Positions 8,902 through 64,000 of a stretch of DNA of 64,000 bases are shown here, in pieces. Positions within the stretch are counted from its first letter, which is position 1. The number at the start of each line of letters is the position of its first letter. Source of the stretch: Pristiophorus japonicus (taxonomy: Eukaryota); the NCBI RefSeq assembly GCF_044704955.1, contig NC_092010.1, positions 34,348,001-34,412,000 on the forward strand, written 5' to 3'. The notes under the pieces are model-generated. The model saw nothing but the letters and a program-made list of their open reading frames with translations, was not told the DNA's origin and ran no database searches. The translations under genes and the position numbers were made by a program.

Positions 8902-8965
8902 ATGTGGAGCACTTTGCAGTTGCTCTTGATTGCTATCATTGGTGCTGCTCCTATGGTTGTCAGCT
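8902..8965 (+). CDS. PMEL: PMEL exon 1 (signal peptide)
   Basis: [21 protein letters not shown] followed by a GTGAGT donor in phase 1, matching exon 2. Confidence 0.85.
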
Positions 8966-17900: not shown

Positions 17901-20900
17901 GGGAGAATACAAATGTCAAATTGTCCAACTTTATATGTCGGCTGTGTTCAACGTATTCAGCCCCGGTATGGAAAATAATGCTGCAGAGCAAGGAACTAAT
18001 CTGACTTTGCAGCTTTTGTGAATGATAATCTAACAGCTTTTCTAGAAACCTGTGTCTTGGAACTATGGAGTACGGCTAAGGGTGAAGTATAAATGCATAA
18101 ATGTCTAAAGAAAAAGGTACTAACATACTTGGTATTTGTTCTGATTCCCTCCTTAACCCCTCTTTAACTGGCTGGGATTAGGTTTCTCAGCTGACCGTCA
18201 CATGAAAAAGATCAGTTGAAGATTTTGGGAGGCATGTGATGTGAATGTTCTCAGCAGGGATCTCACTGCATCACAATGTGCAGAGATGGAATCCATCACA
18301 TGCCTCAACAGCCCGATGCTTCTTCAGGCAAAAGAACCTAAACACATAAACTGTGGGAATTAACGCTTTTAGAACAGAGTAAGAATGAAAATAACTTTTG
18401 AGAAAAATAATCCTTTGCTCATGCAAGACAATTTCAATTTAAAATTAACTATGGGTCAGTTCACTGAATATATTCAAAAAGGAGTTAGATGAAGTCCTTA
18501 CTACTAGGGGAATCAAGGGGTATGGTGAGAAAGCAGGAATGGGGTACTGAAGTTGCATGTTCAGCCATGAACTCATTGAATGGCGGTGCAGGCTAGAAGG
18601 GCCGAATGGCCTACTCCTGCACCTATTTTCTATGTTTCTAATTAGTCAAAAACAAACAACATTTGGGGCTGGATTTTCCGGTCCTTTGCGCTCAGGGTTT
18701 CGCTGCGGAGCGGCGTGAAAGGCGGTGGTGAGGTCTCCTGTGCTCCACTGCGATCCTCGGGTCGGATTTAGCGGAGGCGCTGAGCAGCACCGCCGGGAAG
18801 AGCTACGGCGGGTGGACAACGCCTCTGGTTGCGACACCGGCACAAGTTTTGAGTCTTGTCCGATCTGTCCGCCCGGAAGTGTGCCCGCAATGACCGCCTG
18901 GGAAACCAGAGCGGTCCAGCCATCCCGGCGGCGGAGAGGAAGGTAACGGCTCCAAAGGTAAGTGCGAGTGTTTTTTGTATTTAATTTTTGTGCGATTTGT
19001 GTTGTGGTGGCGAGGGCAATGTTTTCGGAATGTTTTGCTTTTTTTTAGGGATTCCCCCCCCCACAGGCCTCTCTCGGAGCGCACACGGGGCCCGGCACTT
19101 TAGTTGGCAAGTTTCCCATCCTCGCGCCACAAAAAGTGTACAACGCCTCCCTTTGCGCTGCGCCCCCGGACGCAGGGCCCAGATGCCCAAACTTACCTAC
19201 TTAGGCGCAAACTATTCCCGGCCGGTAACTTTCTCGCCCCGCCTCCGTTTTCGCCCCGAAAACAGAAAAGCCCAAAATCTAGCCCCTGGATTGTGTTTGG
19301 ATGGTGGTGGCCTGGCGGGGTGAATTTCGGGAGGGTTTCCCTCGCCTCTTGTCTGGGACTGTTGCCGATTCATTGATAGAGATCGAGTGCTATGATTAGT
19401 TAACAACTCGTTGTATCACATGACTACCAGGATGGGAGAAGGCGAACTAGATGGACTGTGGTCTTTTTTTCTTCGAGGTTAAATTGTTGAAGTAGAGCAG
19501 TATGCAATACTGTGGCTTTAATGTCTTTTTGTGGTTTGGCCTTTTGACAGGGTCTCCGAATGATGGACGCAGAAGGAACAAAGAGGACTCTTCTTCTAGG
19601 CGATTACCTGGCTACAAGTCCTGGAATTCAGAACGTTATCCCATTTGGAAGGCCGGGGACCCCAGGTGGCACGACTGTTGGAAAGGTGAGAATGTGAGCC
19701 TGGATTATGTTACATGTTCTGATTCTCTCTTAATTATATTGATTTGTGAAAATTAGTAGATACTAGGATGCTTGGGTGAAGCTGGCTTGAACAAATCAGA
19801 ATACAACCCTCCTCACAGGGCTACAGGTCCCTAGGATAATTCTTTTAATCCTAAATCAAGCCAAGCCTTATCAGTATGGTAGGAAATCCATTATGTAAAG
19901 TAGGCTACCCCTATTCTGCTTCATTTCTCCTTTTATACTCCTGACTGCATTTCCCATCCAAGCAGCACCCTACCCCACTGACTGTATTTCTCATACCACA
20001 ATGCCTGGCTGTTCTATGCCTCAATGCCTCCACCTTTACTAATCTGAATTCCCTTTCCTCTGTGCTCACTCCTCTCTCCCTTCTCTATCACTGTTGCTCC
20101 TTCCTGTCTCTATAACCTCCTTCAGCCCTACAACCCTCCAAGAGCTCTGTGTTCCTGCAACTGACCCCTTGTGCATCCCCCACTTCCTTTGCTCCACCAT
20201 TGGCAGCCGTGCTTTCAGCTCTGGAATTCCCTCCCTAAACCTCTCTGTCTCTCTATCTCCCTCTCCTCCTGCAAGAGGTTCTTTAAAACCTACCTTTTCT
20301 GTCCTAATATCTCTTTATGTGGCTCGATGTCAAATTTTATTTCATCACGCTCCTGTGAAAGGCCTTGGGACGTTTTACTAGGTTAAAAGCACTGTATCAA
20401 TGCAAGTTGTTGATATTTCAGGCTGCTTACACTAATAGAGCTTGGTGTTCTGATTTAGAATTTAAACAACAATGAGATAACAGCGCTTAAAAATTGTTTC
20501 CAAAACTCCAGGTGTACAACATTCAAAAGGGACAAAGCAGTGAATAAGAAGCACAAGCACAAATAAGAATTAGGTGCCTGGTTTTGCATGTAGGCCACAG
20601 TTGGTGCCCCATGTTCTCAATTTGTCACATAACGTTACATTGGCAGTAGCTTTGGAATCCTCAGACCACTCACCATTTTTAATATAACAATAGATTCCCA
20701 GAAGATTTATACAATTTTAATACTACTGTCAAGTTTCTGTTTTGGTGTCGACATTCCAAAACGTCATCTTGTAGCTAAAACATCTGAGGTCTCGTGCATC
20801 AGAGGAATAGATTCCGGGATCTGTACAAAGGAGGGTCTATTGTTGCTTTTAATAAAGAATTGATGGGGACTTAAGTTAATTTGTAAGTATGCAAACAATT

Positions 20901-23900
20901 CCAAGTTCAAGTTTGAAGTATTCTAACAATTGAATGTTGAATTTAGCACAATCCAGAATATTAGTTCTGAAGCAAATCAATATGGACACTGCTATTTTGT
21001 TAATTTCTTGAGCACTTGCTGAAATTGCCCTGAACTCACGGGTTAACAGTATTATGAAGATTAAGATTCTAATAGGATAATATTCATTCTGTTTGCAAAC
21101 AAGTGTTCCATCAGTAACTTACACAACAGCTACTTCTTGGTTTAGGGATAAGTACTGCGTACAGTTTTGATCTCCTTATTTAAGGAGGGATTTACAGGTT
21201 GAACCTCCCTTATCCGGAACCTTCGGGACCTGGCCTTTTCTGGATAAGGGATTTTTCCGGACGAGGGGTGGTCACGTTAAATTGGATGGTATAGATACTG
21301 AACAAGGGGATATCGGGGCTGGCTGGCTTGGGGCTGGGAGTACGGCAGAGAGATCGTGGGGGGGGTGGATCGCGGGGTCAGGCCAGCGATTGCGGGAGTC
21401 GGCAGCGAGGAAGGACTTCAATTTGTTCATGTCGGAGTTCTACACATACGCCACCTGATGGCCGGGAATGGTTCTGGACGAGGGGTGGTTCCAGATAAGG
21501 GAGTTCTGGATAAGGGAGGTTCAACCTGTACTTGCATTGGACGCAGTTCAGAGAGGGTTCACAAGATTGATTCCTGAGATGAAGGGGTTGTCCTATGAAT
21601 AAAGGTTCAGCAGGTTGGACCTATATTCATTGGAGTTTAGAAGAAAGAGAGGTGATCTTATTAAAGTGTATAAGATTCTCAGGGGGCTTGACAGGGTAGA
21701 TGCAGAGAGGATGTTTCACCTTGTGGGGGAATCCAGAACTAGGAGGCATAGTCTCAGAATAAGGAGTCGCCCATTTAAAACGGAAATGAGGAGGAATTTC
21801 TTCTCTCAGAGGATCGTGAGTCTTTGGAATTCTCTGCCCCAGAGAGCTGTGGAGGCTGGGCCATTGAATATATTTAAGGTGGAGATAGACGAATTTTTGA
21901 GAGAGGGGAGTCAAGGGTTATGGGGAGCGGACAGGGAAGTGGAGTTAAGGCCAAGATCAGATCAGCCATGATCTTATTGAATGGCGGAGCAGGCTCGAGG
22001 GGCCAGATGGCCTACTCCTGCTCCGATTTCTTATGTTCTTATGTAGCCAAGGCCGACTGGCTTGCCTATAAATAACCTACGTGTTTAAGTGCTGCCCGCT
22101 CAGATTGTTTTTCTCATTCACAGGAGGACCAATTTCACTTGAAGTTAACAACGATGCCCCCACCTTAATTGGTGCTAAATCCACCTTCTACATCAGCTTG
22201 AAATTCCCAAGGAATCAGACCATCCAGTCTGATGGAAAGATTGTTTGGGCTGAAAACTGTACTCTGAATGGTAAGGATGAAAAGGCTCGTAATCTTTAGC
22301 CCAATAAAGAGCTGAGGATGACCAGCAGCATTTCTAACATTGACAGGATTTTAAATGGCTTGGCCAGTCAGAATGATACCAGGGCTTAAAGGGTTAAATT
22401 ATGCGGACAGGTTGCATCGACTAGGCTTGTGTTTCCTTGAGTACAGAAGATTAACGGCTAAGACCAAAAGTGCAGGAAATCCCCAAGTTTAAATATCGTC
22501 AGTGAGATCACAAAGTGGTGATTAGTTGCCAGTTAAATTCTGAGGCCAGGTTGCGTAGACTAGGCTTGCATTCCTTTGAGTATAGAAGATTCAGGCGTGA
22601 TCTAATTGAGGTGTTTAAGGTGATTCAAGCATTTGATAGGGTGGATACAGAGAAACAATTTACTCTGGTGGGGGAGTCCAGAACAAGGGGGCATTAACTT
22701 AAAATTAGAGCTAGGCCGTTCAGGGGCAAAGTTAGGAAGCACTTCTTCCCACAAAGGGTGGTGGAAATCTGGAACTCTCTCTTTGAAAAAGCCAGGGGCC
22801 AATTGAAAATATAAAAACTGAGATTGATAGATTTTTGTTAGGCAAGGGTATTAAGGGATATGGAACCAAATGTAGTTAAAATACAGATCAGCCATGATCT
22901 CACTGAATGGCAGAACAGACACGAGGGGCTGAATGGCCTCCTCCTGTTCCTATTTGCTTTAACTTTTATCGCTCCAAGCTTCAACTTTGGGTACTTCAGC
23001 ACATGCCAGGTCTCTCTAGAAACAGGAACAAGAAGACACGATTCAGCTGTAAAACAGACGCATTGAGAGAGCTATCTGAAGTTCATACTGAAACGTTTGG
23101 ATTGCCTATCCAGTGTGCTACTGTTTTTGTTTAAAGATTTTACTCAACAATTAAATGGGAAATGAATCACGAGCAGAAGAGGCCAAGGACTAAGTTCCTA
23201 ATTTAATTGAGTTCATGGCATTCACTGTGTGCGCCAGGAGCGCTGAAGTGGAAAATCCCACTCATATGAACGTATCATATTTGGTGTTATTTTGTGTGTG
23301 GGGCATTATGAACTTGCCTGTTTATATCCTACAGATACACAGGTGACTGCTGGAGAGCCAGTGTATCCCAATGATACATTGCAGCACGCTGACGAGGTGT
23401 TTCCAGATGGAAAGCCCTTTCCAAGGCTCTCTAAGAAGAAAGGATCCAAATTTATCTTTGTGTGGCAAACACTGGGTACGAATACTTTAACTTACTTGGC
23501 TTTTTAAGAAGGAATTATGTCAGATCTCCATTTCAGCAAGGGTTGGGCAATTGAGATGAATGCCGCACGTTGTAGTGCAGCGAGGCTGAGGCTCGACTAT
23601 TCATTACAGGATTTTTAATTAATCACCAGGCTGATCACTGTTTGGCAACATAAATGCTATTTGATAAAGGACATATAAATGCATATTATACAAAAATGAT
23701 GGATTTTATTGAAGGAATGAGTTGGGAATGATTAACAAGCATTCATTGAGTGCAAGAAATGTAAGACTGTTAAAAATGAATTGAGTCCTCGGATACATGT
23801 ACAGGTCTAAAATGTGTGAAATATGCAATTCTGGGCACAATGGTTTCTAAAGGAGATGTTCAGAGAACAAAGACTGCAGGACTCACAATAATTTGAGAAC

Positions 23901-26900
23901 AGGCTATTTATACTTGCTCTTAATGAAACTTTCTTTGGTGCAGTGGGAAGAATGAACTGCTCAGGATCTTTGAAATTGATGGCTGGGAAAATGATGAATG
24001 GCTTGTCACAAGGAATTGATACATTAGTTTGTTTTGACTTGTCTTCCAGGGAAGTACCAGCAAGTAGTGGATGGTCCCTCCTCTCTGCTCGTTATTGGCA
24101 CAACAGATATCCCATTAGGTTCCTATACCATGGAGGTAGCTGTTTATCATTACCGTGGACGTGAGAAATTCATTCCAATCGGAAAAGCTACATCGCAGTT
24201 TACAATCACGGGTAAGAGGATGGATTGGATAGTGAAGCTATTTGTCAAAGTGGGTGGTTTGAAAGATGCTTGAAAGTTAGCTGTTGGAAGCTCAATCAAT
24301 GCACATGCGTCTTTGGTCATAGAAGCCTCTGGTAGCCTGTACAGACAAACTGAAGTATTCAAAGGAGTATTTGGTACAATGCGAAAGCAGTACATACCCC
24401 TAAAAGGCAAAGACTCGACTTGTGTAGTTAACCAACCATGATCCACAAGTGAGGTAGCAGACAAGGGAAAATGGAACTCTAGCAGATCCAAGCCCACAAC
24501 CTCCACCATTGAGAAGGGCAAGGGCAGCAGGTACCTGGGAAACCTCCAAGTTCCATTACAAGTCTCACACCATCTCTGCGCTCCTCCAAATCTGGCCTCT
24601 TGCGCATCCCTGATTTAAATACTGTGGCAATAAGAGCGGGTCAGAGGCTGGGTATTCTGCGGCGAGTGTCTCACCTCCTGACTCCCCAAAGCCTTTCCAC
24701 CATCTACAAGGCACCAGTCAGGAGTGTGATGGAATACTCTCCACTTGCCTGGATGAGTGCAGCTCCAACAACACTCAAGAAGCTTGACACCATCCAGGGC
24801 AAAGCAGCCCGCTTGATCAGCACCCCATCCACCACCTTCAACATTCACTCCCTCCACCACCGGCGCACCGTGGCTGCAGTGTGCACCATCTACAAGATGC
24901 ACTGCAGCAATTCGTCAAAACTTCTTCGGTAGCACCTCCTAAACCCGCGACCTCTATCACCGAGAAGGACAAGGGCAGCAGGCGCATGGGAACACCACCA
25001 TCTCCACGTTCCCCTCCAAGTCACACACCATCCTGACTTGGAAATATATCGGCTGTTCCTTCATCGTCACTGGGTCAAAATCCTGGAACTCCTTCTCTAA
25101 CAGCACTGTGGGAGCACCTTCACCACACGGACTGCAGCGATTCAAGAAGAAGGCCCATTACAACCTTCTCAAGGACAGCTAGGGATGGCCTTTCCAATGA
25201 CACCCACACCCCGAGAATAAATTAAAAAAAAACTCGGGTAGCTATAAAAATCAATAGGGATACAAAGAAAGTAATGAGGTGCAAAATGAATATAAAAACA
25301 GACTTGCAAGGAATATCAAAGCGAACAGCAAAAGTTTTTATAAATATATTAAGAGAAAGAGTGGTAAAGGGGAAGGTGGGCCCAATAAAAACAGATGCAG
25401 GCAAGACTATAATAGACAACAAGGAAATTGCAGACATGTTAAATGAGTACTTTGTATTCGCTTTCAGAGTAAAGGAAAAGAACAAAATACCAGCAGTACA
25501 AGGGAACCTACAAAGAAGTCAAGGGAAGGAACTTAGTGGATTTAATATAAATTTTTAAATGGTAATGGAGAAAATAATGGGACTTAAGATAGATAAATCT
25601 CCAAGACCTGGTAGTTTCCACCCCAGATATTATAAGAAATAGATGAGAAAATTGCAGATGCATTAATCATAATTTTGCAAAGTGCTCTAGATTCAGGAAT
25701 TACGCCTTTTGGATTGGAAAATTGCAACTGTCACTCCATTACTTAAGAAGGGAGTCAGTTTAACATCAGTTGTGGGAAAGTTACTGGAATCTATCACCAG
25801 AGACAGAGTGACCGAGCATTTGGAAAAGTATAAGCTGATCAAAGAGAGTCAGCATGGATTTGTGAAGAGTAGGTCATGTCTGACTAATCCAGTTGAATTT
25901 TTTGAGAAGGTCACTAGTATGGTGGCTAGGGGAGTGTCTATGGGAGTTTTTATATGGACTTCCAGAAGGCATTTAATAAGGTTCTGCACAAGAGATTAGC
26001 ACAAATGAGAGCGCACGGAATTGTTGGTAACTTTGTGAAATGGGTCGGTAATTGGTTGCGAGGGAGGGGACAGAGAGTAGGGATAAAGGGAATTGGTGAG
26101 ATGCAATAAGTAACGTTCCCCAGGGATTTGCACTGGGACCTCAGCTTTTCACCATGCATATTAATGACTTGCAGTTTCAGCAAAATGATACCAGGGCTTA
26201 AAAGGTCAAATTATGAGGTTAGGTCGCAGAAACTTGGTTTGTATTTCCTGGAGTTCAGAAGGTTTAGGGGTGATCTCATCGAGGTCTTTAAAATGATAAA
26301 GGAATTTGATAGGGTAGATACAGAGAAACTATGTCCTCTGGTGGATGAATCAAGAACTGGTGACAGATTAGTAAAAGGGGAGGTACAACGAGACCTGGGT
26401 GTCATGGTACATCAGTCATTGAAGGTAGGCATGCAGGTACAGCAGGCAGTAAAGAAGGCAAATGGCATGCTGGCCTTCATAACGAGGGGATTTGAGTATA
26501 GGAGCAGGGAGGTCTTACTGCAGTTGTACAGGGCCTTGGTGAGACCACACCTTGAGTATTGTGTGCAGTTTTGAGGAATCTGAGGAAGGATATTCTTACT
26601 ATTGAGGGAGTGCAGCGAAGGTTCACCAGACTGATTCCTGGAATGGCAGGAGTGACATAAGAAGAAAGACTGGATCGACTAGGCTTATATTCACTGGAAT
26701 TTAGAAGAATGAGAGGGGATCTCATAGAAACATATAAAATTCTGACAGGATTGGACAGGTTAGATGCAGGAAGAATGGTCACAGTCTTAGGATAAGGGGT
26801 AAGTCAATTAGGACCGAGATGAGGAGAAACTTCTTCACTCAGAGAATTTAGAACCTGTGGAATTGTCTACCACAGAAAGTTGTTGAGGCCAGTTCATTAG

Positions 26901-29900
26901 ATATATTCAAAAGGGAGTTAGATGTGGTCCTTACGGCTAAAGGGATCAAGGGGTATGGAGAGAAAGCAGGAATGGGGTACTGAGGTTGCATGATCAGCCA
27001 TGATGATATTGAATGGTGGTCAGGCTCAAAGGGCCGAATGGCCTGCTCCTGCACCTATTTTCTATGTTTCTATGTTTCTATATTTTATAAGTAGAGCCAG
27101 GTCATTCAGGAGTGAAATCAGGAAGCACTTTTTCACACTAAGGTCAACTGAAGTATGACCTTGTGTGCAAGGTTTTGGATAATGTGTGCTAGGTTTTGGA
27201 TAATGTGTGCTCAGAATGAACAAAAGAGCTCTTGTACTACTGATAAGCTCACTGGAAATCGAAATGGTATGAGATGCCTCCTCTGCTCCTGCTGTCTGAC
27301 TGACTAATAATATTCTGGCAGACCAGTTAGCTCACGATACAAACTAGGAATCGGGTTGGAAAATAAAATTAGAAGCAAGAGCAAACACAGCATTAGATTA
27401 CAATAATGTACTTAAACTTAGAGTGTTTCAGCACAATAAAAACATCTCCATTCTGGTTCCCATCCTATTTGCACGCCTAAATTGGACCTATGTTTGTGAC
27501 ACAGAAAGAAAGACTTGCATTTATATAGCGCCTTTCACGACCACCAAATGTCTCAAAGCGCTTTACAGCCAATGAAATACTTTTTGGAGTGCAGTCACTG
27601 TTGTAACGTGGGAAATGCAGCAGCCAATCTGCGCACAGCAAGCTCCCACAAACAGCAATGTGAAAATGACCAGATAATCTGTTTTAGTGATGTTGATTGA
27701 GGGATTAATATTGGCCAGGACACTGGGGATAACTCCCCTGCTCTTCTTGGAAATAATGCCATGGGATCTTTTACTTCCACCTGAAAGAGCAGACGGGGCC
27801 TCGGTTTTAATGTCTCATCCGAAAGACAGCACCTCCAACAATGCAGCACTCCCTCAGCACTGCACTGGCAAAAGAAAAGACTTGCATTTATATAGCACCT
27901 TTCATGTCCACCGGACGTCCCAAAGCGTTTTACAGCCGATGAAGTACTTTTTGAAGTGTAGTCACTGTTGCAATGTGGGAAACCTGGCAGCCAATTTGCG
28001 CACAGCAAGCTCCCACAAACAGCAAAGTGATAATGACCAGATAACAAAGTAGTTCATATGTGAACTTGGCTTTTCAGTGAGACTTTTACTCTGCCCCATG
28101 GCCCGACAAGAACTAAACTGCATCAAGAGCGCGCAGTTCTGAAACATATATGCCCAAGATCCCACTTTGATCTAAAAGCTGTTCCCTTTAGAAAATGCTC
28201 AGTAGACAATTCTGGTAGATTTACACGTTGAATACGCTTGCAGACCAGTCCTACAAGATGACAAGCTAGCAGCTTGTAAGATTCTTCCTTCTTTCATTTC
28301 ATTTATGCCTGCTACTTCGCTGCTCCCCCTCCCCATCTCCAATCTTGGACAAGGCTAACCAATATCTAAAATCCACTCTGAGGCCGAAACAAATACTTGT
28401 CCTCGTATGCAGCCACTTACCCGTTAAATGTGCACATCTTTATTTGTACCCACTGGCCAGATTCTCTGCTTCCTGAATTAGACTTGCTCCCTGCACAAGG
28501 CCAAAGCTACATTGTCAGCTATGAATAATTATTCAAATAAGCTGAAGTGGAAAATTAGGGATAGTCAGTGCATCATCATCATCATAGGCAGTCCCTCGAA
28601 ATCGAGGAAGACTTGCTTCCACTCTAAAAGTGAGTTCTCAGGTGACTGAACAGTCCAATGCGGGAATTACAGTCTCTGTCACAGCTGGGGCAGACAGTGG
28701 TTGAAGGAAAGGGTGGGTGGGGAGTCTGGTTTGCTGCACGCTTCTTCCGCTCCTTGTGCTTGATTTCTGCATGCTCTTGGCGATGAGACTCGAGGTGCTC
28801 AACGCCCTCCCGGATGCTCTTCCTCCACTTAGGACAGTCTTTGGCCAGGGACTCCCAGCTGTCGGTGGGGATGTTGCACTTAATCAAGGAGGCTTTGAGG
28901 GTGTCCTTGAAACGTTTCCTTTGCCCACCTGGGGCTCGCCTGCCGTGTAGGAGTTCCGAGTAGAGCGCTTGCTTTGGGAGTCAGTGCACTGTGCTGTTGG
29001 TTAACTTTGCACCAGCAATGCCGCACAAAAGCCTCAATTGTGCTGGAAGTGGAAAATCATCCCTTAAGTTCCCATCAAGAAAGTAAACCAAATTCAGTTC
29101 CTAATCGCCATAGGTATTATATCTCTTGACACTGATAGTGCTTCACTAAGAATCTCCTTAGTCTGTGTCTATGACTTCCTGTATTTCATTCAGGATGGGG
29201 GATGATGAAATTGTTACGTCCTGACTCTAATGTACTGACATACACGAGACACATGCTGCAGTCAAGGTCACTCAGGACCTGCACCTTTAATTCCAGCTCT
29301 CCAGTGCTGCACTTGCCTGAGACCTCCCTTTTTATACCACAGTGGGACAGGTATGGAGTGTCTCCTGCAAGTGCACCCCTGGTGGTAAGGTATGCTTATT
29401 GTTACAGGTCATATCCAGTTACAATCATGTATAGCATGGTAAGATACAGTTATATACAGTATTGTGAGATACATGACATCACCCTCCCCCAAGGTCTTAT
29501 TGCCTTTATAGATTCAGTCTCTCAGGTGGTCTGCGCTCTCACGTCTTAGTTGTGGTTCAGTTGTTTGCTTTGGTGCCTGTTTTTCGTTCGGTGTGATTGC
29601 TGGTATCTCGCCTGGGCTGTCTGTTTCGTTCGGTGTGATTGCTGGTATCTCGCCTGGGCTGTCTGTTGAGACTGCCCTTTCCTCAGGTTGTTCCACCTGT
29701 CTGTTCACCAGGTGTGGTGTGAGTTCCACATTGTAGTCTGCCTCTGGTTCTTTAGTGTTATCAGTGAATCTACTTTTTACTTGGTCGACATGCCTCCGGC
29801 AGGTTTGGCCATTGTCCATTTGTACAACCAGTAGCCTGTTTCCCTCTTTGTTTGTTACTGTCCCTGCAAGCCATTTGGGACCCCGGCCATAGTTTAGCAC

Positions 29901-32900: not shown

Positions 32901-35900
32901 GGCTGATCTCTCTTGAGCTTCTCTCAGTCTGTTGTTGATTGCTCGCATTGTGGGTTGATGAGGTGTGATCGGCTGTTCATGTGGCCCTTGATTTTGATGG
33001 CTTCTGGCGCCACTGTCTGCTGTTGAAGGCCTGCTCTCCTGCCTTTGTCTGTGTGTGGGGGTAGCGGTTTGTTTCACAATGTGAACCCCTTGTTCCGATG
33101 CCTCGTTGGTTGTCGTACCCAAAGTATAGATCAGCCTCGTTTCTTCTTCGCCTGCCAAGAATGTCTGTGCGACTAGTACTGCTGCCTCTAGAGTCAAGTT
33201 CTTAGTCTCTATAAGCTTTCGGAATATGCCTGCGTGGCCTATTCCTTCAATAAAAAAGTCTCTCAGTACTTCTCTCCTTAGTTCATCGGGGAACTCACAT
33301 GAACTAGCCAGCCTCTGAAGTGCCGCCACGAAGTCGGGTATGCTTTGGCCCACGCAGCGTCTGTAGTTGTAGAACCTATGTCTGGCCATGTGTAGGCTGC
33401 TCGCTGGCTTCAGGTGATCTCTCACCAGTGTGCTCAACTCCTCAAACGACTTGCTTGCTGGTTTCTCGGGTGCCAGCAGATCTTTCATTAAAGCGTATGT
33501 TTTCGAGCCACAGCTGGTCAAGAGATGGGCTCTTCTCTTGTCTGCCTTATCGTCACCCAGCCAGTCTTTGGTCACAAAGCTTTGCTGGAGCCTTTCTATA
33601 AAGTCATCCCAATTGTCTCCAGCATTGTATTTCTCATCTGAGCTGTTGGTAGCCATTCTGTGGATTCTGTGATCCCGTAACTCGTCAACACTGTTAAGTC
33701 CTGACTTTAATGTACTGACTTACACGAGACACATGCTGAAGTCAAGGTCACTCAGGACCTGCACCTTTAATTCCAGCTCTCCAGTGCTGCACTTGCCTGA
33801 GACCTCCCTTTATATACCACAGTGGGACAGGTATGGAGTGTCTCCTGCAAGTACACCCCTGGTGGTAAGGTATGCTTATTGTTACAGGTCATATCCAGTT
33901 ACAGTCATGTATAGCATGGTAAGATACAGTTATATACAGTAATGTGAGATACATTACAGAAATATGATCCCCTCTTCCCTCCCCCCGCCCCTTATATTTT
34001 CCAGAGGTGAGGGATTGCAATTATTATAAGATGGTACTTTGACCATAATTGTTCTTGGCGTCCAGTAAAGTCTAAGTCAGTGTGGCTTGATTTAAAAGTG
34101 TGGACTTCACGTAAAAAAACTTTTAATAAAGTTTGCAAGTTGATATAGTAAGTTGATCCTTTTCTACAACATCTGACAGAATGGCTTCCATCAATGTGAT
34201 AAGTTGTTGCATCTGAGTTTTTCTGGATTGGAAACTAGAAATTCTTGTGCCTTTTTAATAACCTGGTCGCTTGGCATTCAATTTTTTTTTAACTTCTGAG
34301 TTGAATTCTGCACTAATTTGCTTTTATTTCTCCTTGCAGATCAGATTCCATTCTCTGTTGAGATTTCCCAGATTAGCGATCTCAATGATGCAGACAACAG
34401 CTTCATACAGAACCGGGCTATTCTATTTGGAATTAAACTCCACGACCCTAGTCTATATTTAAAAGATGCAGATGTCAGCTTTACCTGGGATTTTGGAGAT
34501 GAAAGTGGTATCCTCATCTCACGGCTCCACACAGTGACACACACCTACCTCTCAACAGGAGCATTCAAACCACAAGTAGCCCTACAGGCTGCCATCCCAT
34601 CAACTGTGTGCAGCACAGCCAATCCAACCACTGAGAATTCAATTCCAATGATCTCGACTATAACCTCTGACCCCACATCACCTCTACCTGTCACTGGATC
34701 CTCTGTTGTGACTCCTGGTCTGATTGTATCCCCAGTAACTAGCCAGCCTACTGCAGGGGAGGTTACTACAGGTAGGAGCAACCCAGGACAATAAACACTG
34801 GAGTAGAAGCTGAAATGGTTCATAGTTCACTTTTAGTTTTCATGTTTGCATGTTGCAGCTGAGTAAGGCAACAGTAATCTGGATCACTCTCGTGTTGGCT
34901 CAAAGGTGCAGATTCACATTCTTTCAAGGGAAAAGTATTAAGAAAAACTTGCATTTATATAGTGCCCTTAACGTAGTAAAAGTCCCAAGGCACTTCACAA
35001 GAGCGCTATCAAACAAAATCTGACACCGAGCCACAAAAGGAGATTTTAGGACAGGTGACCAAAAGCCTGGTCAAAGAGGTAGGTTTTGGAGAATCTTGCA
35101 GGAGGAAAGAGAGATAGAGAGATGGAGAGATTAACAGAGGTAATTCCAGAGCTTGGGGCCTAGGCAGCTGAAGGCATAGCCACCAATGGTAGAGAGATGA
35201 AAATCGGGGATGCAGAAGAGGCCAGAATTAGAGGAGCACAGAGATCTCGGAGGGTTGTAGGGCTGGAGGAGGACACAGAGATAGAGCGATGCCATGGAGG
35301 GATTTGAAAACAAGGATGGGAATTTTAAAATCGAGGTGTTGCTGGACCGGGAGCCAATGTAGGTCAGCGAGCACAGGGGTGATGGGCGAATGGGACTTGG
35401 TGCGAGGTAGGACACAGGGCAGCAGAGGTTTGGATGACCTCAAGTTTATGGAGGGTGCAAGATGGGAGGTCGGCCAGGAGAGCATTGGAATAATCGAGTC
35501 TAAAGGTAACCAAGGCATGGATGAAGGTTTCACCAGCAGATGGGTGGGGACGGGCGATGTTAGAGTTGGAATTGGATGGTCTTGGTGATGGAGAGGATGT
35601 GGGGAATTTATCTGTTGGAATTTTGAAGCATTATCTTTATTTATTTCTAAAACTAGCAATGTCATGTCAGTTCTGCCTATAAATGGTAAGGTCAAACTAT
35701 TCTGCACTGTGCTTGAGGGAGTAGATTAGTCTGTCGGCAGTGGTGACTTGTTTCTGGGTTTTCAATCTATCTAGCCATCTTTTTGGCTGGCTAAAGATTG
35801 TAATGTGATGTCGTCAAACTGGATACTGTTCCAATCGAGCTATTTTTGTTGAGTTTCCCCCTGCCACTAAAATTCAAGTCTTGTTATGGCGAAGAAAGCA

Positions 35901-38900
35901 CTCTAATAAATTTGACTTCTCAATAATTGCAAATAAAGTCTTTGGACAGTGGGAAGCACAATTTGAATGTGGTTTGTAACATTTTGTGTGGCTGTCTTCT
36001 TTCTTTCCTTCCTCCTCCCAAAGTAAAGGTAAATAGATCACTTTAGCTCCGTGTTCACATGGTAATTTGGTTCGGGAATGAGCTTGCTGAGTAAGAGATT
36101 TGAGTGACCTGGTAACCTTATGGTTGTTCAACATCTGAGGTACTCGTACAATCTGAGGTACTCATACCCATAAGCCATCTTTTCTTGTACCACAACAGAT
36201 AATTATCCTCTTTCCCTGGCTTTTCTGCTGCACCTCCCAAATTGTTGTAACTTCGAAAATCCAGGGTAATGGTTTATTAGCTGGTTGCAATTACGATCCT
36301 CTATAACGACACTGCAGTTTTACCTACAGATTCTAATTCAACATTTATCATTTTCCAGTTTTGCCACAAATTTGACAAACTAATACCAGTAGGTATGACT
36401 AAAATGCATACTGTAGCATATTGGAGCAGTGAATTAGGAATCATACTTAATAAATAGATTATTCACGTTTAAAATATCACTAAAATTATACCAGATGTAA
36501 TCATTGCCCAACAACAGCTATGAGATATTAAACTAAGCAAGACATTATCTCCTATATGAAAAATTCATTATCTTGTATGTTCCACACTCAAAATGGGCAG
36601 TAACAGCTTTATTTATTCAATTTCTTGCTCTCAATATCACTCATGACGGCCTAGTCTTTTTTGAAAGGGACTGGATATGGAATATTAGCAAGTTAAGGTA
36701 CATTTGTTGAATACTCAAGTAAAAAGACACTGTATTGAATTTCAAATGAACTTGGTTTCTGTCTCGTACACCTGACAAAACTTTAGAACTGCATTTTAAT
36801 TTGTTTTCATAGGAAATACAGCTCCTTCTCAGCCACCTACAGTTGAACCTGTAGCTGTATCTACTCCAATGTCTGATTCCCCAGTACCACCTTCTGAGCA
36901 GCAGCCAATCGTAATCCCCACTTCCACAGGAGGCCCTATTCCACTTCCTTCTGCCACCATCAATCCTGTAGCCCCTGCCTCTGATGATGCTATAAATGCG
37001 GCAATCGCTGTCTCAGAACAAGCTATAAATGCGGCTACCCCTGCCTCTGATGAAGCTATAAATGCGGCTACCCCTGCCTCTGATGAAGCTATAAATGCGG
37101 CTATCCCTGCCTCTGATGAAGCTATAAATGCGGCTACCCCTGCCTCTGATGAAGCTATAAATGCGGCTACCCCTGCCTCTGATGAAGCTATAAATGCGGC
37201 TACCGCTGTCTCAGAACAAGCTATAAATGCGGCTACCCCTGCCTCTGATGAAGCTATAAATGCGGCAATTGCTGTCTCAGAACAAGCTATAAATGCGGTT
37301 ACCCCTGCCTCTGATGAAGCTATAAATGCGGCTACCCCTGCCTCTGATGAAGTTATCAATGCGGCTACCCCTTCCTCTGATGAAGCTATAAATGCGGTTA
37401 CCCCTGCCTCTGATGAAGCTATAAGTGCAGCAACCCCTGCCTCTGATGAAGCTATAAATGCGGCTACCCCTGCCTCCGATGAAGCTATAAATGCGGCTAC
37501 CCCTGCCTCCGATGAAGCTATAAATGCAGCAATCGCTGTCTCAGAACAATCAACCGGTAAGTCTTCCATTTGCTATTTTTTTTGGAGACTTTATTTAAAT
37601 GCTTGGAAAAACTGCAATGCACAGTTTTGTATAAATCTGCATCTTGTGCTGCATTGGCCTGAACCAGTGCAACAAATCTGGTGAAATGCTTTTTGCTTTT
37701 GTGTAGTCTAATTGAGTGGTATGGTACAACTGGAAACTTGGAGATCTGAAATTATTGCAACAATGGGTTTCTTTCGTAAAATACACTGAAAATACCTTTT
37801 CTGAATCTACAGCTGTATCTGCCACAATGCTGATTCCAGAGGGTGAGACAACTGCTACGGGCACAAATGAGGGACTGATGCTGGTGAAACGACAGGCTGT
37901 TGAAGATCCAACGGAGAATTGCCTTATCTACCGCTATGGCACCTTCGCTACCACCATCAATATTGTCCGTGAGTAAGACCTTCAAATAGGTACCTCCACA
38001 AACAAGTAGATACCGCGTTGACCAGAATGGACAGTTAATGAGCCCTGGCTTCCAAGGCTGTCAGGTTGTTAAATTCTAAAGAAAGCCCAATGCCCTATTA
38101 CTTTGAGAGGTACACAAACTGCTCAGGGAGGACTTTCATTCACACTCCTCTTGGGAAAGTGCCGTAGCAGCTGTTTACCTCCCAACAAACTGGCTAAAAT
38201 TGGGAACATCCCATGTGGGAGTCACAGGGGCATATCCATATCTTGTCACTCTGGTGGTGTTTTGGTACATCACTGCACTGTGTTATTGGACTAGCTACGG
38301 CTACCTGGCTTTTATTTGTGGAACTTTTTGATCTGATGGCTAGTAATGACCATCATCCATCTAATTTCCACATAGTAGCAAAAGATGCAGAAATAATTCT
38401 TGCATGTAGATTCCGATCAAACGTTGACAGTTTATAGAGCAATAAAACTCGGAACTCTATGTAGTAACAAGCAGCAATATCACTTCAGTTTAAAAAAGAA
38501 ACTGGCATTAAGTTACTTGGCTACTCATCTTCGAAATAGTACCATGGGATCTTTTACGTCCATCTGAGAGGGCAGACGGGGCCTCGGTTTAACATCTCAT
38601 CCGAAATACGCCCCTCCGACAGTGCAGCACCCCCTCAGTACTGCCCTTCCGACAGTGCGGCGCTCCCTCAGCACTGCACTGGAGTGTCAACCTAGATTTT
38701 TGTGCTCAAGTCTCTGGAGTGGGAACTTGAATCCACAACCTTCTGACTCAGAGGCGAGAGTGCTACCAACAGCTATTACTGGCTGACTAGGATGAAAGGA
38801 TACTGAGGTGGTGGGCTGTTAGTGGTTTAATGGTTTGTCTTGCTTTTTTTCTCTTTCAGAGGGCATTGAAAGTGTGGAAATTGTGCAAATATCAAATGTG

Positions 38901-41900
38901 GTGCCAGGTTCTGTGGCCGAGATGCAGCAAAACGCTGTGGATTTCACGGTGACCTGTCAGGGAAGGTATGGTGTATACGAGTTTTGATTATGTTTCTCAT
39001 TCAATGTACACTAATGGCTTTGAGATATAGTTCTACTTGCATGAGTAGTGTAAACAGCTACAAGAAAAGGAGGCGCCAAATGAAAGGTTTAAGGCCAGCC
39101 TGGTAATTGACTGGAGGTCAGTGAGCTTTAAATGAGTAAAGCGTACTATATACTACAGGTATGTATTTGTTGAATTAAAATATTTAAATGGAACAGTTGG
39201 CAAGATCTACCAGCAACAATCTGTCCAATTTGAAATGGCAGTCGTGCAGTTCCTGTTATATTTGCAGAATTTCCATTTTTGCATTTGGGCAAGTTGATGG
39301 AACGCAATTGTATTCTACACCTTCTACACCTGCAGTCCGACCAAGGATGTGTGTGGCTTTGGTGGGAAAAATCTATCTTCTCAAACTCAATCTTTTTATA
39401 CCTCCTTCATGCAGAGAAGGTTGGACCTTCTCGATCCAACTCTCTGCAGAACGCACGAGGTATTCCGACAGCTGCCTTTAAAATCTGTTCTAGCTGTGTT
39501 ATTGTATTACGATGAAGGAACAGATGCACGATGAGAAGGTACAATTTTAAGTGCTGTCATTTCTTTTCCAGCTTCCCGAGTGAGATTTGCACTGTTGTCT
39601 TGGACGCAGACTGCATAAATCCTCAGCAAATGGACTGTACGGAAGTGCTGCCTGCCGATGAATGTCAGCTTATCCTTCGCCAATTTTTCAACTCCTCTGG
39701 AACTTACTGCGTAAATGTCTCTATGACAAACGCGGTCAGCTTGGCTGTTGCCAGTGCCCGTGTTAATGTGATCCCAAGTAAGTCTGTCCAAACTATATAA
39801 CAAAGTGAGTGAATATAATGCAACCCTTGGGCACATTACAGATGATGCAGTCTACCACAAACGTGACGAAGAGCGTTGGGAGTGTATCTTTATTTGCTCC
39901 AGTGCATGGATGGTCAAAATAGCTGGATAAGAAGTTACTGGGTTTGTACTATTAATATCCTGAATGTCAATGCTAATCAATCTCCTGTGGCATTGCGCAC
40001 ACAGAGTCAAGACCAAGTGATCAGGTGAACTGGGGTCAGAGGCCTGGGCAATAATCGGACCAGGGTGCACAGATGTAATTCAGTCCCCAGTTTAAAGTAA
40101 TACCCTCTACCTTTCATTTTATATTTCTATTATAAACTCCTATTTTCACATTTTCTACAAGCCTACTGAATCCTGGGCTTCATGAATAAAGGTATAGAGT
40201 ATAAAAGTGTGGAAATTATGATGAACCTTGATAAAACACTGGTTCGGCCCCAGCTGGAGTATTGTGTCCAATTTTAGGCACCGCACTTTAGGAAGGATGT
40301 GAAGGCCTTCGAGAGGGTGCAGAAAAGATTTACAAGAATGGTTCCAGGGATGAGGGACTTCAGTTACGTTGATAGACTGGAGAATCTGGGGTTGTTCTCC
40401 TTGGAGCAGAGAAAATTGAGAGGAAATTTGATCGAGGTGTTCAAAATCATGAGGGGCCTGGACAGAGTAGATAGAGAGAAACTGTTCCCATTGGCGGAAG
40501 GGTCAAGAATCAGAGGACACAGATTTAAGGTGATTGGCAAAAGAACCAAAGGCGACATAAGAAAAAACTTTTTTATGCAGCGAGTGGTTAAGATCTGGAA
40601 TACAGGCCTGAAAGGGTGGTGGAGGCAGACTCAATTTTATCTTTCAAAAGGAAATTGGATATGTATCTGAAGGAAAAAAAATTACAGGACTACGGGGAAA
40701 AGGCGGGAGAGTGGGACTAGCTGAGAGCCGACACGGGCTCGACGGGCCGGATGGCCTTCTTCCATGCTGTAACCATTCTATGATTTATGATGGAAACTGC
40801 CTGTCACATGTCACGCTGTAATTACACCCTCCTGTCAGTGGTGGCGATGTAGTGCTTCCATTGGGGGCGGGGGGGCGGGTGTAATTACAGCTTGACAAGA
40901 TCAGGCAGTTTCCATCATAAATATGGAAATAGGAATTTATAATAGAAAGTTGACAAAGCGGTAAGATTTTTAAATATGTTTGCTTATCTTCACATTGTCC
41001 CGGTTTTACCCTTTTATTGCATCAAAGCACGTGGGAAAGAATGCTTTAACGTTCAGGTTTTATTTCTGTGTAGTTTTTAGTTTCTACTGAATGATTAACT
41101 TAATTTCATTTTAATAGACAAGGTGAGCAGCTAGCTTTAAATTGATTCGAAATGGCAGGGTCAAAACTTGATCAAAGCACGTTGCTGTGTGGAAGATGGT
41201 TGAACTAACTGTAGCCAAATGCATTGTATTGTCGGTCCCAACTTCCAGACCTCGCCCGTCCCGGTCCCAACCCCTGGACCTCGCCGGTCCCGACCTCCGC
41301 TCCTCTCCGCTTCCGATCTCCACACCTCACTGGTCCTGACCTGCGGACCTCGCCCGTCCCGACCTCCGCTCCACGGCCGTCCCAACCTCCGTTCCTCGCC
41401 GCTTCCGACCTCCGCTCTTCGCCCGTCCCAACCTCCGTTCCTCGCCGCTTCCGACCTCCGCTCCTCGCCCGTCCCAACCTCCGTTCCTCGCCGCTTCCGA
41501 CCTCCGCTCTTCGCCCGTCCCAACCTCCGTTCCTCGCCGCTTCCGACCTCCGCTCTTCGCCCGTCCCAACCTCCGTTCCTCGCCGCTTCCGACCTCCGCT
41601 CCTCGCCCGTCCCAACCTCCGTTCCTCGCCGCTTCCGACCTCCGCTCCTCGCCCGTCCCAACCTCCGTTCCTCGCCGCTTCCGACCTCCGCTCTTCGCCC
41701 GTCCCAACCTCCGCTCCACGCCGCTTCCGACCTCCGCTCTTCGCCCGTCCCAACCTCCGCTCCTCGCCGCTTCCGACCTCCGCTCTTCGCCCGTCCCAAC
41801 CTCCGTTCCTCGCCGCTTCCGACCTCCGCTCTTCGCCCGTCCCAACCTCCGTTCCTCGCCGCTTCCGACCTCCGCTCCTCGCCCGTCCCGACCTCCGCTC

Positions 41901-44900
41901 CTCGCCGCTTCCGACCTCCGCTCCTCGCCCGTCCCAACCTCCGCTCCTCGCCGCTTCCGACCTCCGCTCTTCGCCCGTCCCAACCTCCGTTCCTCGCCGC
42001 TTCCGACCTCCGCTCCTCGCCCGTCCCGACCTCCGCTCCTCGCCGCTTCCGACCTCCGCTCTTCGCCCGTCCCGACCTCCGCTCCATGCCGATTCCGACC
42101 TCCGCTCCTCGCCCGTCCCGACCTCCGCTCCTCGCCGCTTCCGACCTCCGCTCCTCGCCCGTCCCGACCTCCGCTCCATGCCGATTCCGACCTCCGCTCC
42201 TCGCCCGTCCCGACCTCCGCTCCACGCCGCTTCCGACCTCGGCTCCTCGCCCGTCCCGACCTCCGCTCCTCGCCGCTTCCGACCTCCGCTCCTCGCCCGT
42301 CCCGACCTCCGCTCCATGCCGATTCCGACCTCGGCTTCACGCCACTTCTGACCTCCGCTCCTTGCCCGTCCCGACCTCCGCTCCACGCCGCTTCCGACCT
42401 CCGTTCCTCGTCGCTTCCGACCTCCGCTCCACGCCGCTTCCGACCTCAGCTCCACGCCACTTCTGACCTCCGCTCCTTGCCCGTCCCGACCTCTGCTCCA
42501 CGCCACTTCTGACCTCCGCTCCTTGCCCGTCCCGACCTCTGCTCCACGCCGCTTCCAACCTCTGCTCCACGCCGCTTCCGACCTCCGTTCCTCGTCGCTT
42601 CCGACCTCAGCTCTTCGCCCGTCCCGACCTCCGCTCCATGCCGCTTGCGATCTCCACTCCACGTTGCTTCCGACCTCTGCTCCACGCCACTTCTGACCTC
42701 CGCTCCTCGCCAGTCCCAACCTCCGTGTTGGTCATTCTGCTGTTGCGTTAGTTGGGTCTTTTTTTGATTTGCCCACAGCTCCAGCCTCGTGCTCCAAACG
42801 CTAAACTCCAAACTGCTCCTCTGACTGTCCCATGAAGTCAGGCTTTTTTTGATTTGCCCGCAGCTCCAGCCTCGTGCTCCAAACTGCTCCTCTGACTGAG
42901 GTCCTATGGGAAGGAGGAAGGAAGGAGGACAGTAGGAGTATGTTTGAGTTTGTGTGTACGTATAGGCACATGCGGCGGAGCCTGGTCTCCAGTCGCCTTG
43001 GATCCCCTTGCCACTGGACCAAGACCTTGCTCCGTCAAGCCCGTGTGGTGGCTGGTGTGCAACGGCCACCCCACGTTAAAAGAATTCACGCACAGGCATC
43101 TTCCACTGTTTAAAATGAGTTCATCAGTCACCTGAGTACTCATTTTTAGTGTGGAAGCAAGTCATCCTCGACCCTGAGGGACTGCCTGTGATGATGATGA
43201 TTGTTGGTCTATTTCCCCTCGCTGATTATCTTTCCAACCCTCCCATTTTTGCTTAAAGATTGTCATCAATATTCTGCGCATTAATGAACTGTAATTTTGA
43301 GTGATTAATGAGTCTTTTCTCTCAGCTGCAGGTGGGACACCTAATACTACTGAAGCCCTGGTAATTGTTGGGATGTTGCTCATTGCCAGTATCATTGGAG
43401 TTGTAGCCATTACCTACAGGTTAGTGTGTGCAACTATCACAATGAAAAAGGGGAACCAATTCAGAGATGACTTGCTCTTTGGAAGGTATTTGGCTTTTCC
43501 TAATGGGGCAGAAATCCCGGCCTCCCCGGGTGCGTATGGAGTGTGTACGGACCCGGGAAGGCATAGCAAAAGCTGGTTTTCAGCAGGCAAAGCTCCTTGA
43601 CAGATCCTCTGTATCTCGGGTGCGAGGACATTTGTACGGGCAAGATTGTGGTATTTACCCATACCTTGCCAGCAAATGTCCTCAAAACTATTGCGCCTGA
43701 TAAAAGCAGGCGCATCACCTACTTTTACAGGCATAAGAGTTTTAAAATACACAAAAACATTGTAAAATAAAATTTTAGAAACACATTTTATTGTTAAAAA
43801 CCCTCCCCACTACGGTAAGTTTATTTTAAACCATAATTTTAAAAACTTTTTTAAAAATCGGAAAAATCTATATTTGTTAAATACATAAATAACTTTAATT
43901 TAAATTAATAAAAATATGTTGTGCATTTTTTCTATCTTTTATTATTGGTTATGTGTGTTTTTTGGGGGGGGGGGTTTCTCATTCATAATAATGGGAATTC
44001 CAACTTACGGAGTTCCCGTTACTATGACTGAGAACATACTTTACCTGATTGGCTGTCCAGAGCCATGTGACTCCAGCTCCAGGCCTGCGCACGTCCTGAT
44101 GTGCACGCGCTGCGACGCGCAGTCAGTGGAGGCCTCAGGACCTGGAACTCGGGTGGGCGCAGCAGGAACAGGAAAGTGCGCTTCTTTTTTCTAGAATCCA
44201 GTTGAATGCCTGTGGGAAGGAGAAACCGGGATTTCTGGGCCATTGACTTCTGAACTCAGAAGCAGTACAACTTAAAAGATCTCCATATGTAGCTTACGGA
44301 TGAGGGAATGCAAGATTGTCCAGAAATGAAACCAACTGAACCTATGGTCAAGCGTAGCAGTACAAGTTTCCAACAGTGGGGTAGCCTATTTTGAAACCAA
44401 GGCCCTGAGAATGAAATAAAATGTAAAAACTCAAGGTGGTCCTAATTCAGCAACTTGTCGCTTTTTAAAAAATGTGTCTTAATTTGAACTATTTCATGTC
44501 AAAAAGGAAGCATGATTATGCGCTTCGTGGCCAGTAATCTCTTGTGGAGGGTGGCCATTAAGCATGAACATGTGTCCACCGGTTTGCTTGAAGCCTTTCG
44601 TGACTGGTGGGCATCGCAAGGAAGTCACTGCATCATAGACCCTTCCTGCACAATACAGTTTTAGGTGGGTCAACAAAACATATCTGTGGCACGCTCCCAA
44701 GAGAATGATTGGTGGCGTCCAGGAAACCAGCATCACCCTCACTGGCCCATCAAAAGTAGGGATTCTCTTCTGGAGAATTGGGGATCTTGTTTGTAATGTT
44801 AATAGAGGTGTTGAGATAGTGGCTGTGGAAAGATATATGAAGGACAAGACACCTGGGGCAAATTGCATACTTCTTAACCAGCGAAAGTGGTCATGGTGGA

Positions 44901-49653: not shown

Positions 49654-49974
49654 AATACAACACGTTTAAAATGTCAGTAATTCTATAAACTGGGGTTTGG
49701 GATCTGTGCAACCAAATAACTAAAGATAGTGAGGATGTAATGGGGGAGAAATTCAGTTGTGCCTCTGTTGCAGCATTAATCCAGGCAGAGCGCTACGTTT
49801 AGCACCTTGAAAAAGTTTGCGCCTCCCGCCCAGAAATTCATCAGAATCGGTCAAAGAGCTGACATGGGCGATAAATCACCCGGTGCAGCTGGGGGGGGGG
49901 GGGGGTGCAATCACAAAAGTTTGGTTGGTACATTGTGCAGACACACTGCGCATGCGCGGAACTCCGAATGAGAG

Positions 49975-50663
49975 GGGTTGAAGGATGAGGAGGAGCTGAG
50001 GGATGAGGTGAGGTTGAGGGATGAGGTGAGGTTGAGGGATGAGGAGGAGTTGAGGGATGAGGTGGGGTTGAGTGATGAGGTGGGGTTGAGGGATGAGGTG
50101 AGGTTGAGGTGAGGTTGAGGGATGAGGTGAGGTTGAGGGATGAGGAGGAGTTGAGGGATGAGGTGAGGTTGAGGGATGAGGTGAGGTTGAGGGATGAGGA
50201 GGAGTTGAGGGATGAGGTGAGGTTGAGGGATAAGGAGGAGTTGAGGGATGAGGTGAGGTTGAGGGATGAGGAGGAGCTGAGGGATGAGGAGGAGCTGAGG
50301 GATGAGGTGAGGTTGAAGGATGAGGTGGGGTTGAGGGATGAGGAGGAGTTGAGGGATGAGGTGAGGTTGAGGGATGAGGAGGAGCTGAGGGATGAGGAGG
50401 AGCTGAGGGATGAGGTGAGGTTGAAGGATGAGGTGGGGTTGAGGGATGAGGAGGAGTTGAGGGATGAGGTGAGGTTGAGGGATGAGGAGGAGCTGAGGGA
50501 TGAGGAGGAGCTGAGGGATGAGGTGAGGTTGAAGGATGAGGTGGGGTTGAGGGATGAGGAGGAGTTGAGGGATGAGGTGAGGTTGAGGGATGAGGAGGAG
50601 CTGAGGGATGAGGAGGAGCTGAGGGATGAGGTGAGGTTGAAGGATGAGGTGGGGTTGAGGTGA
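49975..50663. repeat. Purine-rich 18-bp minisatellite with a 108-bp higher-order repeat
   Basis: Units GAGGGATGAGGTGAGGTT and GAGGGATGAGGAGGAGYT; the variant GAAGGATGAGGTGGGGTT recurs every 108 bp. Confidence 0.95.
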
Positions 50664-63223: not shown

Positions 63224-63259
<36 letters not shown>

Positions 63260-63954: not shown

Positions 63955-64000
63955 GTAAAGTGGGAGGAAGGGTGGGGTGTGGGGGAGAGATTCTAGTTTT

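Follow-up and report, generated by a model that had tools for sequence, protein, structure and literature searches.

Residue 160 in the described PMEL systems

The gene considered here is the PMEL gene of the sawshark Pristiophorus japonicus, which lies in a stretch of 64,000 nucleotides on contig NC_092010.1 (positions 34,348,001 to 34,412,000 of the forward strand; this whole stretch is the window, and coordinates are counted from its first letter). The closest described system is human PMEL, in which nine mutants, W160A and L170A among them, are reported as complete nulls and Y151F retains full function in cells; the same paper terms Trp160 and Leu170 absolutely conserved (PMC5341037). The W156A protein is described as still forming fibrils, in normal as well as in aberrant organelles (PMC3608505). 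In the native lamella reported by Ma et al., the N-terminal beta-sandwich has a core in which Trp160 packs with Phe84, Phe149, Tyr151, Trp153, Leu170, Ile172, Phe207 and Ile209, and the links between units are made by Tyr189, Asp255, Ser257, Arg272 and Tyr480 (PMC12639109; PDB 9LIP). Each of the three cross-beta structures described for fibrils of the core amyloid fragment (CAF; PDB 9JST and 9JSV) has an inner core formed by Trp160 (PMC12219675); according to Ma et al., this form may come from harsh extraction and the native fibrils consist of folded domains (PMC12639109). Trp160 is held to be both absolutely conserved and essential, and the two cryo-electron microscopy studies, both of 2025, assign it different roles. 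In the sawshark protein the residue is Gln, and this W160Q change is real and derived, an apparently unreported exception to the essential-residue rule in a known protein. What has been found is one substitution, seen at the level of sequence, in a gene already known; a pigmented clade without Trp160 would provide ready-made reagents for deciding between the two roles.

Codons of the sawshark amyloid core

The codons in question lie on the two sides of intron 4:

23335..23475, + strand: exon 4, with IDR1 and the first part of the CAF; Phe149 at 23451-23453
23457..23459, + strand: Phe (TTT) at human Tyr151; change tolerated in human PMEL
23463..23465, + strand: Trp153 (TGG), essential in human PMEL, kept
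23472..23474, + strand: Leu (CTG) at human Trp156; widespread, possibly ancestral
23476..24049, + strand: intron 4, 574 nt, GT-AG; spliced out in contigs from runs X1, X2, X5, X6 and X8
24050..24211, + strand: exon 5, remaining CAF; Leu170 (24088-24090), Ile172 (24094-24096), Tyr189 (24145-24147), Phe207 and Ile209 kept
24058..24060, + strand: Gln (CAG) at human Trp160; the substitution derived within sharks

An earlier reading of the window from its letters alone (the sequence-only reading) had translated the exon 4/5 junction into 14 residues at 23451-24066. This translation holds across the GT-AG intron, as do the calls of Phe151, Leu156 and Gln160, and the human sequence 149-162 with its numbering agrees with chain R of PDB 9LIP. 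Eight RNA runs from three related organisms, and among the runs listed none from the sawshark, contain a small share of this stretch, and spliced contigs from five of the eight use the intron 4 junction; codon 160 itself is unreadable in these contigs, since mismatches closer than about 31 letters to the end of a piece go unlisted. CTG (156) and CAG (160) are each two letters away from TGG, and the expectation that a simple sequencing error was unlikely is borne out by 11 other shark species with Gln160. Because these species carry Gln, the residue is not an assembly error, and W160Q is not specific to the sawshark genome.

The statement that the sawshark core lacks the tryptophans of mammalian PMEL was too broad: residues 156 and 160 are indeed replaced, but one of the three tryptophans, Trp153, remains. 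The Trp columns besides 156 and 160 that are common to at least 75% of bony vertebrates are all kept in the sawshark (6/6). Similarly, Tyr151 and Trp160 had both been taken as required for fibrils, which stands for Trp160 in human PMEL but not for Tyr151, given the fully functional Y151F (PMC5341037), and the weight laid on the loss of Trp156 does not agree with the fibrils formed by human W156A (PMC3608505). Y151F carries no weight, since it is functional in human PMEL and present in 9 of 28 bony vertebrates. Only W160Q among the three changes conflicts with the known residue roles, because Y151F is functional, W156A forms fibrils and W160A is null.

The sawshark protein shares its domain order with the human lamella (PMC12639109), with 54% identity in the CAF and 61% in the PKD domain. 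Seven of the nine named core residues of the lamella are identical, Tyr151 and Trp160 being replaced by Phe and Gln, and the inter-unit residues Tyr189, Asp255, Ser257, Arg272 and Tyr480 are all kept. The sawshark differs further in Leu for Trp156, in Thr and Ala at the equivalents of Ser482 and Ser484, and in an RPT domain made of about 17 copies of an 11-aa unit. The segment homologous to the human cross-beta fibrils comprises residues 149-181 (PMC12219675), in which the inner-core residue, Trp160 in the three structures, is Gln.

Distribution of residues 151, 156 and 160

One sequence per species was scored in 23 chondrichthyans (13 sharks, 9 batoids and Callorhinchus), 28 bony vertebrates and 10 GPNMBs, the sharks being 11 galeomorphs, the sawshark and Heptranchias, without squaliform, squatiniform or further hexanchiform species. 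Gln stands at position 160 in 12 of the 13 sharks, which we take to represent five orders, and Trp in Heptranchias, 9/9 batoids, Callorhinchus and 28/28 bony vertebrates. PMEL-named proteins of lamprey and two hagfish have Trp160 as well, the lamprey names being described as uncertain (PMC8273697), and GPNMB has Tyr or Phe at this position in 10/10. Among 210 gathered proteins the residue is Gln in 26 (shark records by name), Trp in 146, Tyr or Phe in 31 and off-pattern in 7; Gln160 was absent from the 58 aligned segments obtained from 140 further representatives. Position 151 is Phe in 23/23 chondrichthyans and 9/28 bony vertebrates. Position 156 is Leu in 22/23 chondrichthyans (the exception is Narcine), in lamprey and in 5/28 bony vertebrates, among them the coelacanth and some amphibians.

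Since lamprey, hagfish, chimaera, batoids, Heptranchias and bony vertebrates all have Trp160, Gln160 is, as judged from these sequences, derived within sharks, and neither ancestral nor GPNMB-like. The sequence-only reading had proposed an ancestral state and a likeness to GPNMB. The former is contradicted by the outgroups just listed, and the latter by the aromatic residue in all 10 GPNMBs, the sawshark's own copy included, and by the grouping of the gene with PMEL; of the changes, only Leu156 may be ancestral. Its further proposal, of fibrils built differently or of a weakly amyloidogenic protein, would sit less well with the indirect evidence, which favours a working scaffold. Shark Gln160 was not found reported in print in a search that did not extend to most subscription journals; the alignment figures in PMC5341037 ('seven fish') and the supplements of PMC12639109 and PMC8273697 lay outside this check and may include a shark. 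The family evolution study is described as sampling a skate and a chimaera, both from Trp-bearing groups (PMC8273697).

Orthology

A quick tree was built from 49 aligned proteins, with 12 of the 61 rows left out. In it the split between PMEL and GPNMB had a support of 100 in the Shimodaira-Hasegawa-like approximate likelihood ratio test (SH-aLRT), and the sawshark gene stood among the elasmobranch PMELs. The tree thereby also checks a grouping with GPNMB, which had been raised earlier as a refutation; the gene lies on the PMEL side. The matches listed from two genome searches come from two loci only, that of PMEL and one on contig C5 that is GPNMB-like; a second, Trp160-bearing PMEL copy was not found among them. 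The GPNMB-like paralogue lies at about 128,862,000-128,882,000 of C5 and has Trp153, Gln156 and Tyr160 at the equivalent positions. GPNMB, a paralogue in the PKAT family (PMC8273697), resembles the sawshark gene in its homologous CAF and PKD domain and has Leu156 in 4/10 sequences, but differs in its own clade, its own locus in the sawshark genome, Tyr or Phe at 160 (10/10) and the absence of Arg272 (10/10). The gene is an intact PMEL orthologue, not GPNMB. PMEL of Heptranchias perlo and the batoids is 82-88% identical to that of the sawshark over residues 40-300; these proteins and that of Callorhinchus, the model of which is unreliable past the CAF, share Phe151 and (except Narcine) Leu156 with the sawshark but differ by Trp160 in 11/11.

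Constraint on the rest of the protein

Relative to 99 columns invariant in the 28 bony vertebrates, the sawshark shows 2 departures, the other Gln sharks 3-4, Heptranchias 4 and the rays 3-5, and from these counts sawshark PMEL does not look to be in general decay. The sawshark gene offers the clearest example, with hardly any departure from invariant positions other than Gln160. All essential residues save Trp160 are present in it (Asp73, Pro75, Leu77, Phe84, Phe149, an aromatic residue at 151, Trp153, Leu170, Ile172, Tyr189, Phe207 and Ile209). In 12/12 Gln sharks Asp73, Pro75, Leu77, Phe84, Phe149, Trp153, Tyr189, Phe207 and Ile209 are kept, together with the lamella contacts Tyr189, Asp255, Ser257, Arg272 and Tyr480.

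The remaining shark departures lie in the core that also contains residue 160. Position 170 is Leu in the sawshark (24088-24090), in all rays and in 28/28 bony vertebrates, and Val in Heptranchias; of the 11 galeomorphs, eight have Val there, two Ala and one Met. The two with Ala, the whale and zebra sharks (Rhincodon and Stegostoma; P0002, P0006), combine it with Gln160. Position 172 is Val in 8 of the 12 Gln sharks, and Val172 is also common in bony vertebrates. A Trp gained at position 115 of the UniRef sawshark protein P0001 (exon 4, IDR1) is found in 11/11 galeomorphs, the sawshark and Heptranchias having Leu, and is on this pattern a possible secondary compensation in galeomorphs. In the white and basking sharks (P0011, P0019) an otherwise invariant Pro at the CAF end (human 214) is replaced by Leu.

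A probable repacking of the core and the alternatives

On the pattern of kept and changed residues, the explanation we consider probable is that sharks tolerate the change with a repacked core in the N-terminal beta-sandwich; under it the protein would still assemble fibril sheets. Residues 160, 170 and 172 of human PMEL share one hydrophobic core in the known structure, and the fibril contacts are made elsewhere, by Tyr189, Asp255, Ser257, Arg272 and Tyr480. Shark PMEL would fold, be cleaved and assemble as the human protein does, with one corner of the N-terminal core repacked. Most sharks also have smaller residues at 170 and 172 (L170V/A/M, I172V), which suggests a remodelling of this corner in sharks (160/170/172). 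The protein would bear the lower stability or make up for it, perhaps with less difficulty once cartilaginous fishes no longer formed cylindrical eye melanosomes. On this view Trp160 would be needed for stability in the human context, not as a universal amyloid nucleator. In favour of such a repacking, Gln160 is unchanged across 12 shark species. The AlphaFold2 model of the sawshark protein, built from a 66-sequence alignment, has a predicted local distance difference test score (pLDDT) of 85-88 over residues 141-160. Against the 9LIP chains it gives a TM-score of 0.90 with a root mean square deviation (rmsd) of 1.6 Å over 74 columns for the CAF, and of 0.94 with an rmsd of 0.6 Å for the PKD domain.

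Melanosome shape can be compared for a few species. The aspect ratio of skin melanosomes (lower values are more elongate) is given as 0.70 in the catshark Scyliorhinus canicula, which has Gln160, and 0.64 in Galeus (PMC13714305, Suppl. Table 6); elsewhere, two skates have 0.68 and 0.66, a chimaera 0.72 and five teleosts 0.73-0.80 (PMC13714305). On these values catshark skin melanosomes are as elongate as those of the skates, chimaera and teleosts. Pmel-null mouse melanosomes are reported to be always spherical (PMC3174228). The shapes weakly favour a working scaffold, as the methods differ and the species are few. In chondrichthyan eyes only spheroidal melanosomes are described, in catsharks, skates and chimaera alike (PMC13714305). 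Gln160 as the cause of this eye shape was rejected, because skates and chimaera, whose sequenced relatives bear Trp160, also lack cylindrical melanosomes. In spiny dogfish skin, pmel is reported to mark a melanocyte cluster (PMC13558645), the dogfish being outside the residue-160 sample. No shark fibril data were found in the literature searched.

Several points weigh against a tolerated repacking. Human W160A is reported to give no fibrils, to exit the endoplasmic reticulum weakly and not to be rescued in trans (PMC5341037, PMC3608505), and even W160F is strongly impaired (PMC3608505). No compensating residue common to all Gln sharks was found in the alignment columns compared, position 160 is the sole column that joins sawshark and galeomorphs against Heptranchias and rays, and in the sawshark the repacking has no visible partner, because Leu170 and Ile172 are kept. 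The alignment behind the AlphaFold2 model has Trp in most rows, and the model is no guide to the effect of a single substitution. The eye melanosomes of catsharks are slightly rounder (0.82 and 0.84) than those of skates and chimaera (0.77, 0.77 and 0.79), a difference within the standard deviations of 0.10-0.15 (PMC13714305). The shape data come from scanning electron microscopy of extracted melanosomes, in which fibrils are not visible, and S. canicula alone among the measured species also has a PMEL sequence in our comparison.

The lost tryptophan may also be read as harm. It is conceivable, though we would not favour it, that the PMEL fibril core was dismantled stepwise in sharks, their melanosomes being built on a weak or chemically different scaffold. 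The order would tentatively be the loss of cylindrical eye melanosomes, then W160Q in most sharks, plus L170A in the whale and zebra sharks, and W160Q and L170A might, with similar doubt, be seen as hits on the two positions where alanine abolishes human fibrils. Rather unlikely in our view, though the main rival to a repacking, is that shark PMEL became a hypomorph: once the cylindrical eye melanosomes were lost, selection on fibril yield would have been relaxed and core changes (W160Q, then L170V/A/M) would have become fixed, leaving a weaker or thinner scaffold of fibrils. The hypomorph finds some support in the complete loss of function reported for human W160A and L170A (PMC5341037), given the Gln160 and Ala170 of Rhincodon and Stegostoma. 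The eye melanosomes of crown chondrichthyans, spheroidal only and roundest in catsharks (PMC13714305), and the mild effect described for Pmel loss in the mouse (PMC3174228) would fit it as well. It is opposed by the skates and chimaera, which lack cylindrical melanosomes in spite of the Trp160 of their sequenced relatives, by invariant columns free of excess decay, by the retained lattice contacts and long RPT domain, and by the oblong skin melanosomes of catsharks (PMC13714305).

Glutamine ladders are a general feature of amyloids, and in a further, improbable alternative an amide ladder of Gln160 and Gln161 would replace the aromatic stack in the cross-beta form of residues 148-183. The place of Trp160 in the inner core of all three cross-beta structures (PMC12219675) speaks for such altered chemistry, but that form may stem from harsh extraction (Ma et al., PMC12639109), the shark AlphaFold2 model fits the folded form, and the literature searched offered no shark fibrils for comparison. 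Least probable by far is that Gln160 is an ancestral or GPNMB-like state or an artefact, be it a wrong paralogue, an assembly error, a second copy with Trp or editing of CAG to UGG. Leu156 is indeed shared with lamprey and 4/10 GPNMBs, and the transcript contigs of relatives leave codon 160 unread. Against this stand Trp160 in all outgroups and Gln in 12 species, the SH-aLRT support of 100 with the gene among elasmobranch PMELs, and the genome searches with only the PMEL and C5 loci among the matches listed; editing would need two different reactions within one codon. Ancestry and paralogy are refuted by the Trp160 outgroups and the PMEL/GPNMB tree.

The readings differ in what they would imply. 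With a tolerated repacking, that is, if shark PMEL works, the essential-residue rule of a functional amyloid would depend on context; if it is weak, the reduced elongation of shark melanosomes would have a correlate at the molecular level. A stepwise dismantling, if true, would make shark PMEL a natural experiment on Trp160 as a folding residue (lamella) versus an amyloid nucleator (cross-beta).

Phylogenetic signal at the shark root

Gln160 requires two events on the traditional shark tree and one on an ultraconserved element (UCE) topology in which Hexanchiformes branch first and the other sharks are monophyletic; this topology is presented in 10.64898/2026.02.13.705779 and opposed in 10.1101/2025.08.19.671162. 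The free PMEL tree requires 2 changes. Among 418 columns, 1 joins sawshark and galeomorphs, 3 join Heptranchias and galeomorphs, and 1 joins sawshark and Heptranchias. In approximately unbiased (AU) tests without column 160, p was 0.085 for the Gln clade and 0.275 for sawshark plus Heptranchias, and neither grouping was rejected. PMEL alone leaves the shark root undecided, because the column counts conflict and the AU tests reject neither grouping. If Gln160 were general in squalomorphs and Trp in hexanchiforms, the residue would be a two-step rare character at this disputed root.

Gene structure and surroundings

PMEL comprises 12 exons at 8902-45865 on the + strand, with an open frame of 849 aa and GT-AG borders at 11/11 introns. 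From exon 2 onward it is identical to the UniRef entry 'premelanosome protein a' of Pristiophorus japonicus (P0001). The signal-peptide exon, homologous to that of other sharks, is at 8902-8965 and splices in frame. The public model P0001 opens with a 6-residue exon at 18101-18118, without a signal peptide. The protein carries a signal peptide, CAF, PKD, RPT, a conserved dibasic Lys-Arg site, the kringle-like domain (KLD) and a predicted transmembrane helix. The exons other than 4 and 5 are:

8902..8965, + strand: exon 1, signal peptide, absent from P0001; found by tblastn with shark and ray PMEL N-termini (62-76% identity), with GT donor and open frame
19551..19685, + strand: exon 2; spliced frame and identity to P0001
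22124..22270, + strand: exon 3, N-terminal fragment; equivalents of Asp73 (22153-22155), Pro75 (22159-22161) and Phe84 (22186-22188) all kept; spliced in contigs of relatives
34340..34771, + strand: exon 6, PKD domain; equivalents of Asp255 (34471-34473), Ser257 (34477-34479) and Arg272 (34522-34524) kept
36813..37556, + strand: exon 7, RPT domain; 33-nt (11-aa) unit in 16.8 copies at 36972-37527
37813..37968, + strand: exon 8, Lys-Arg convertase site (Lys at 37887-37889) and chain-delta strand with the Tyr480 equivalent (37935-37937)
38860..38965, + strand: exon 9
39572..39777, + strand: exon 10, kringle-like domain (PF20433)
43326..43419, + strand: exon 11, predicted transmembrane helix
45703..45865, + strand: exon 12, cytoplasmic tail and stop

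Repeats occur within and around the gene. Intron 1 contains a LINE-like (long interspersed nuclear element) open frame of 930 aa with endonuclease and reverse transcriptase (10469-13258, + strand), and intron 3 a highly repeated element (about 22316-22963) matched by thousands of contigs of the relatives' runs. Broken frames on the - strand at about 900-4700, upstream of PMEL, and at 29500-33700, in intron 5, presumably represent gypsy-type retrotransposon gag-pol. A tandem array of a 46-nt unit in 31.5 copies occupies 41279-42725 in intron 10, and another, of an 18/54-nt unit, lies downstream of PMEL at 49968-50660. At about 63000-64000 on the + strand are exons that we take to resemble MCRS1, a possible syntenic neighbour; a weak Pfam match to MCRS_N at 63697-63993 has an E value of 0.004, under the cut-off. 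MCRS1 and PMEL are linked on human chromosome 12.

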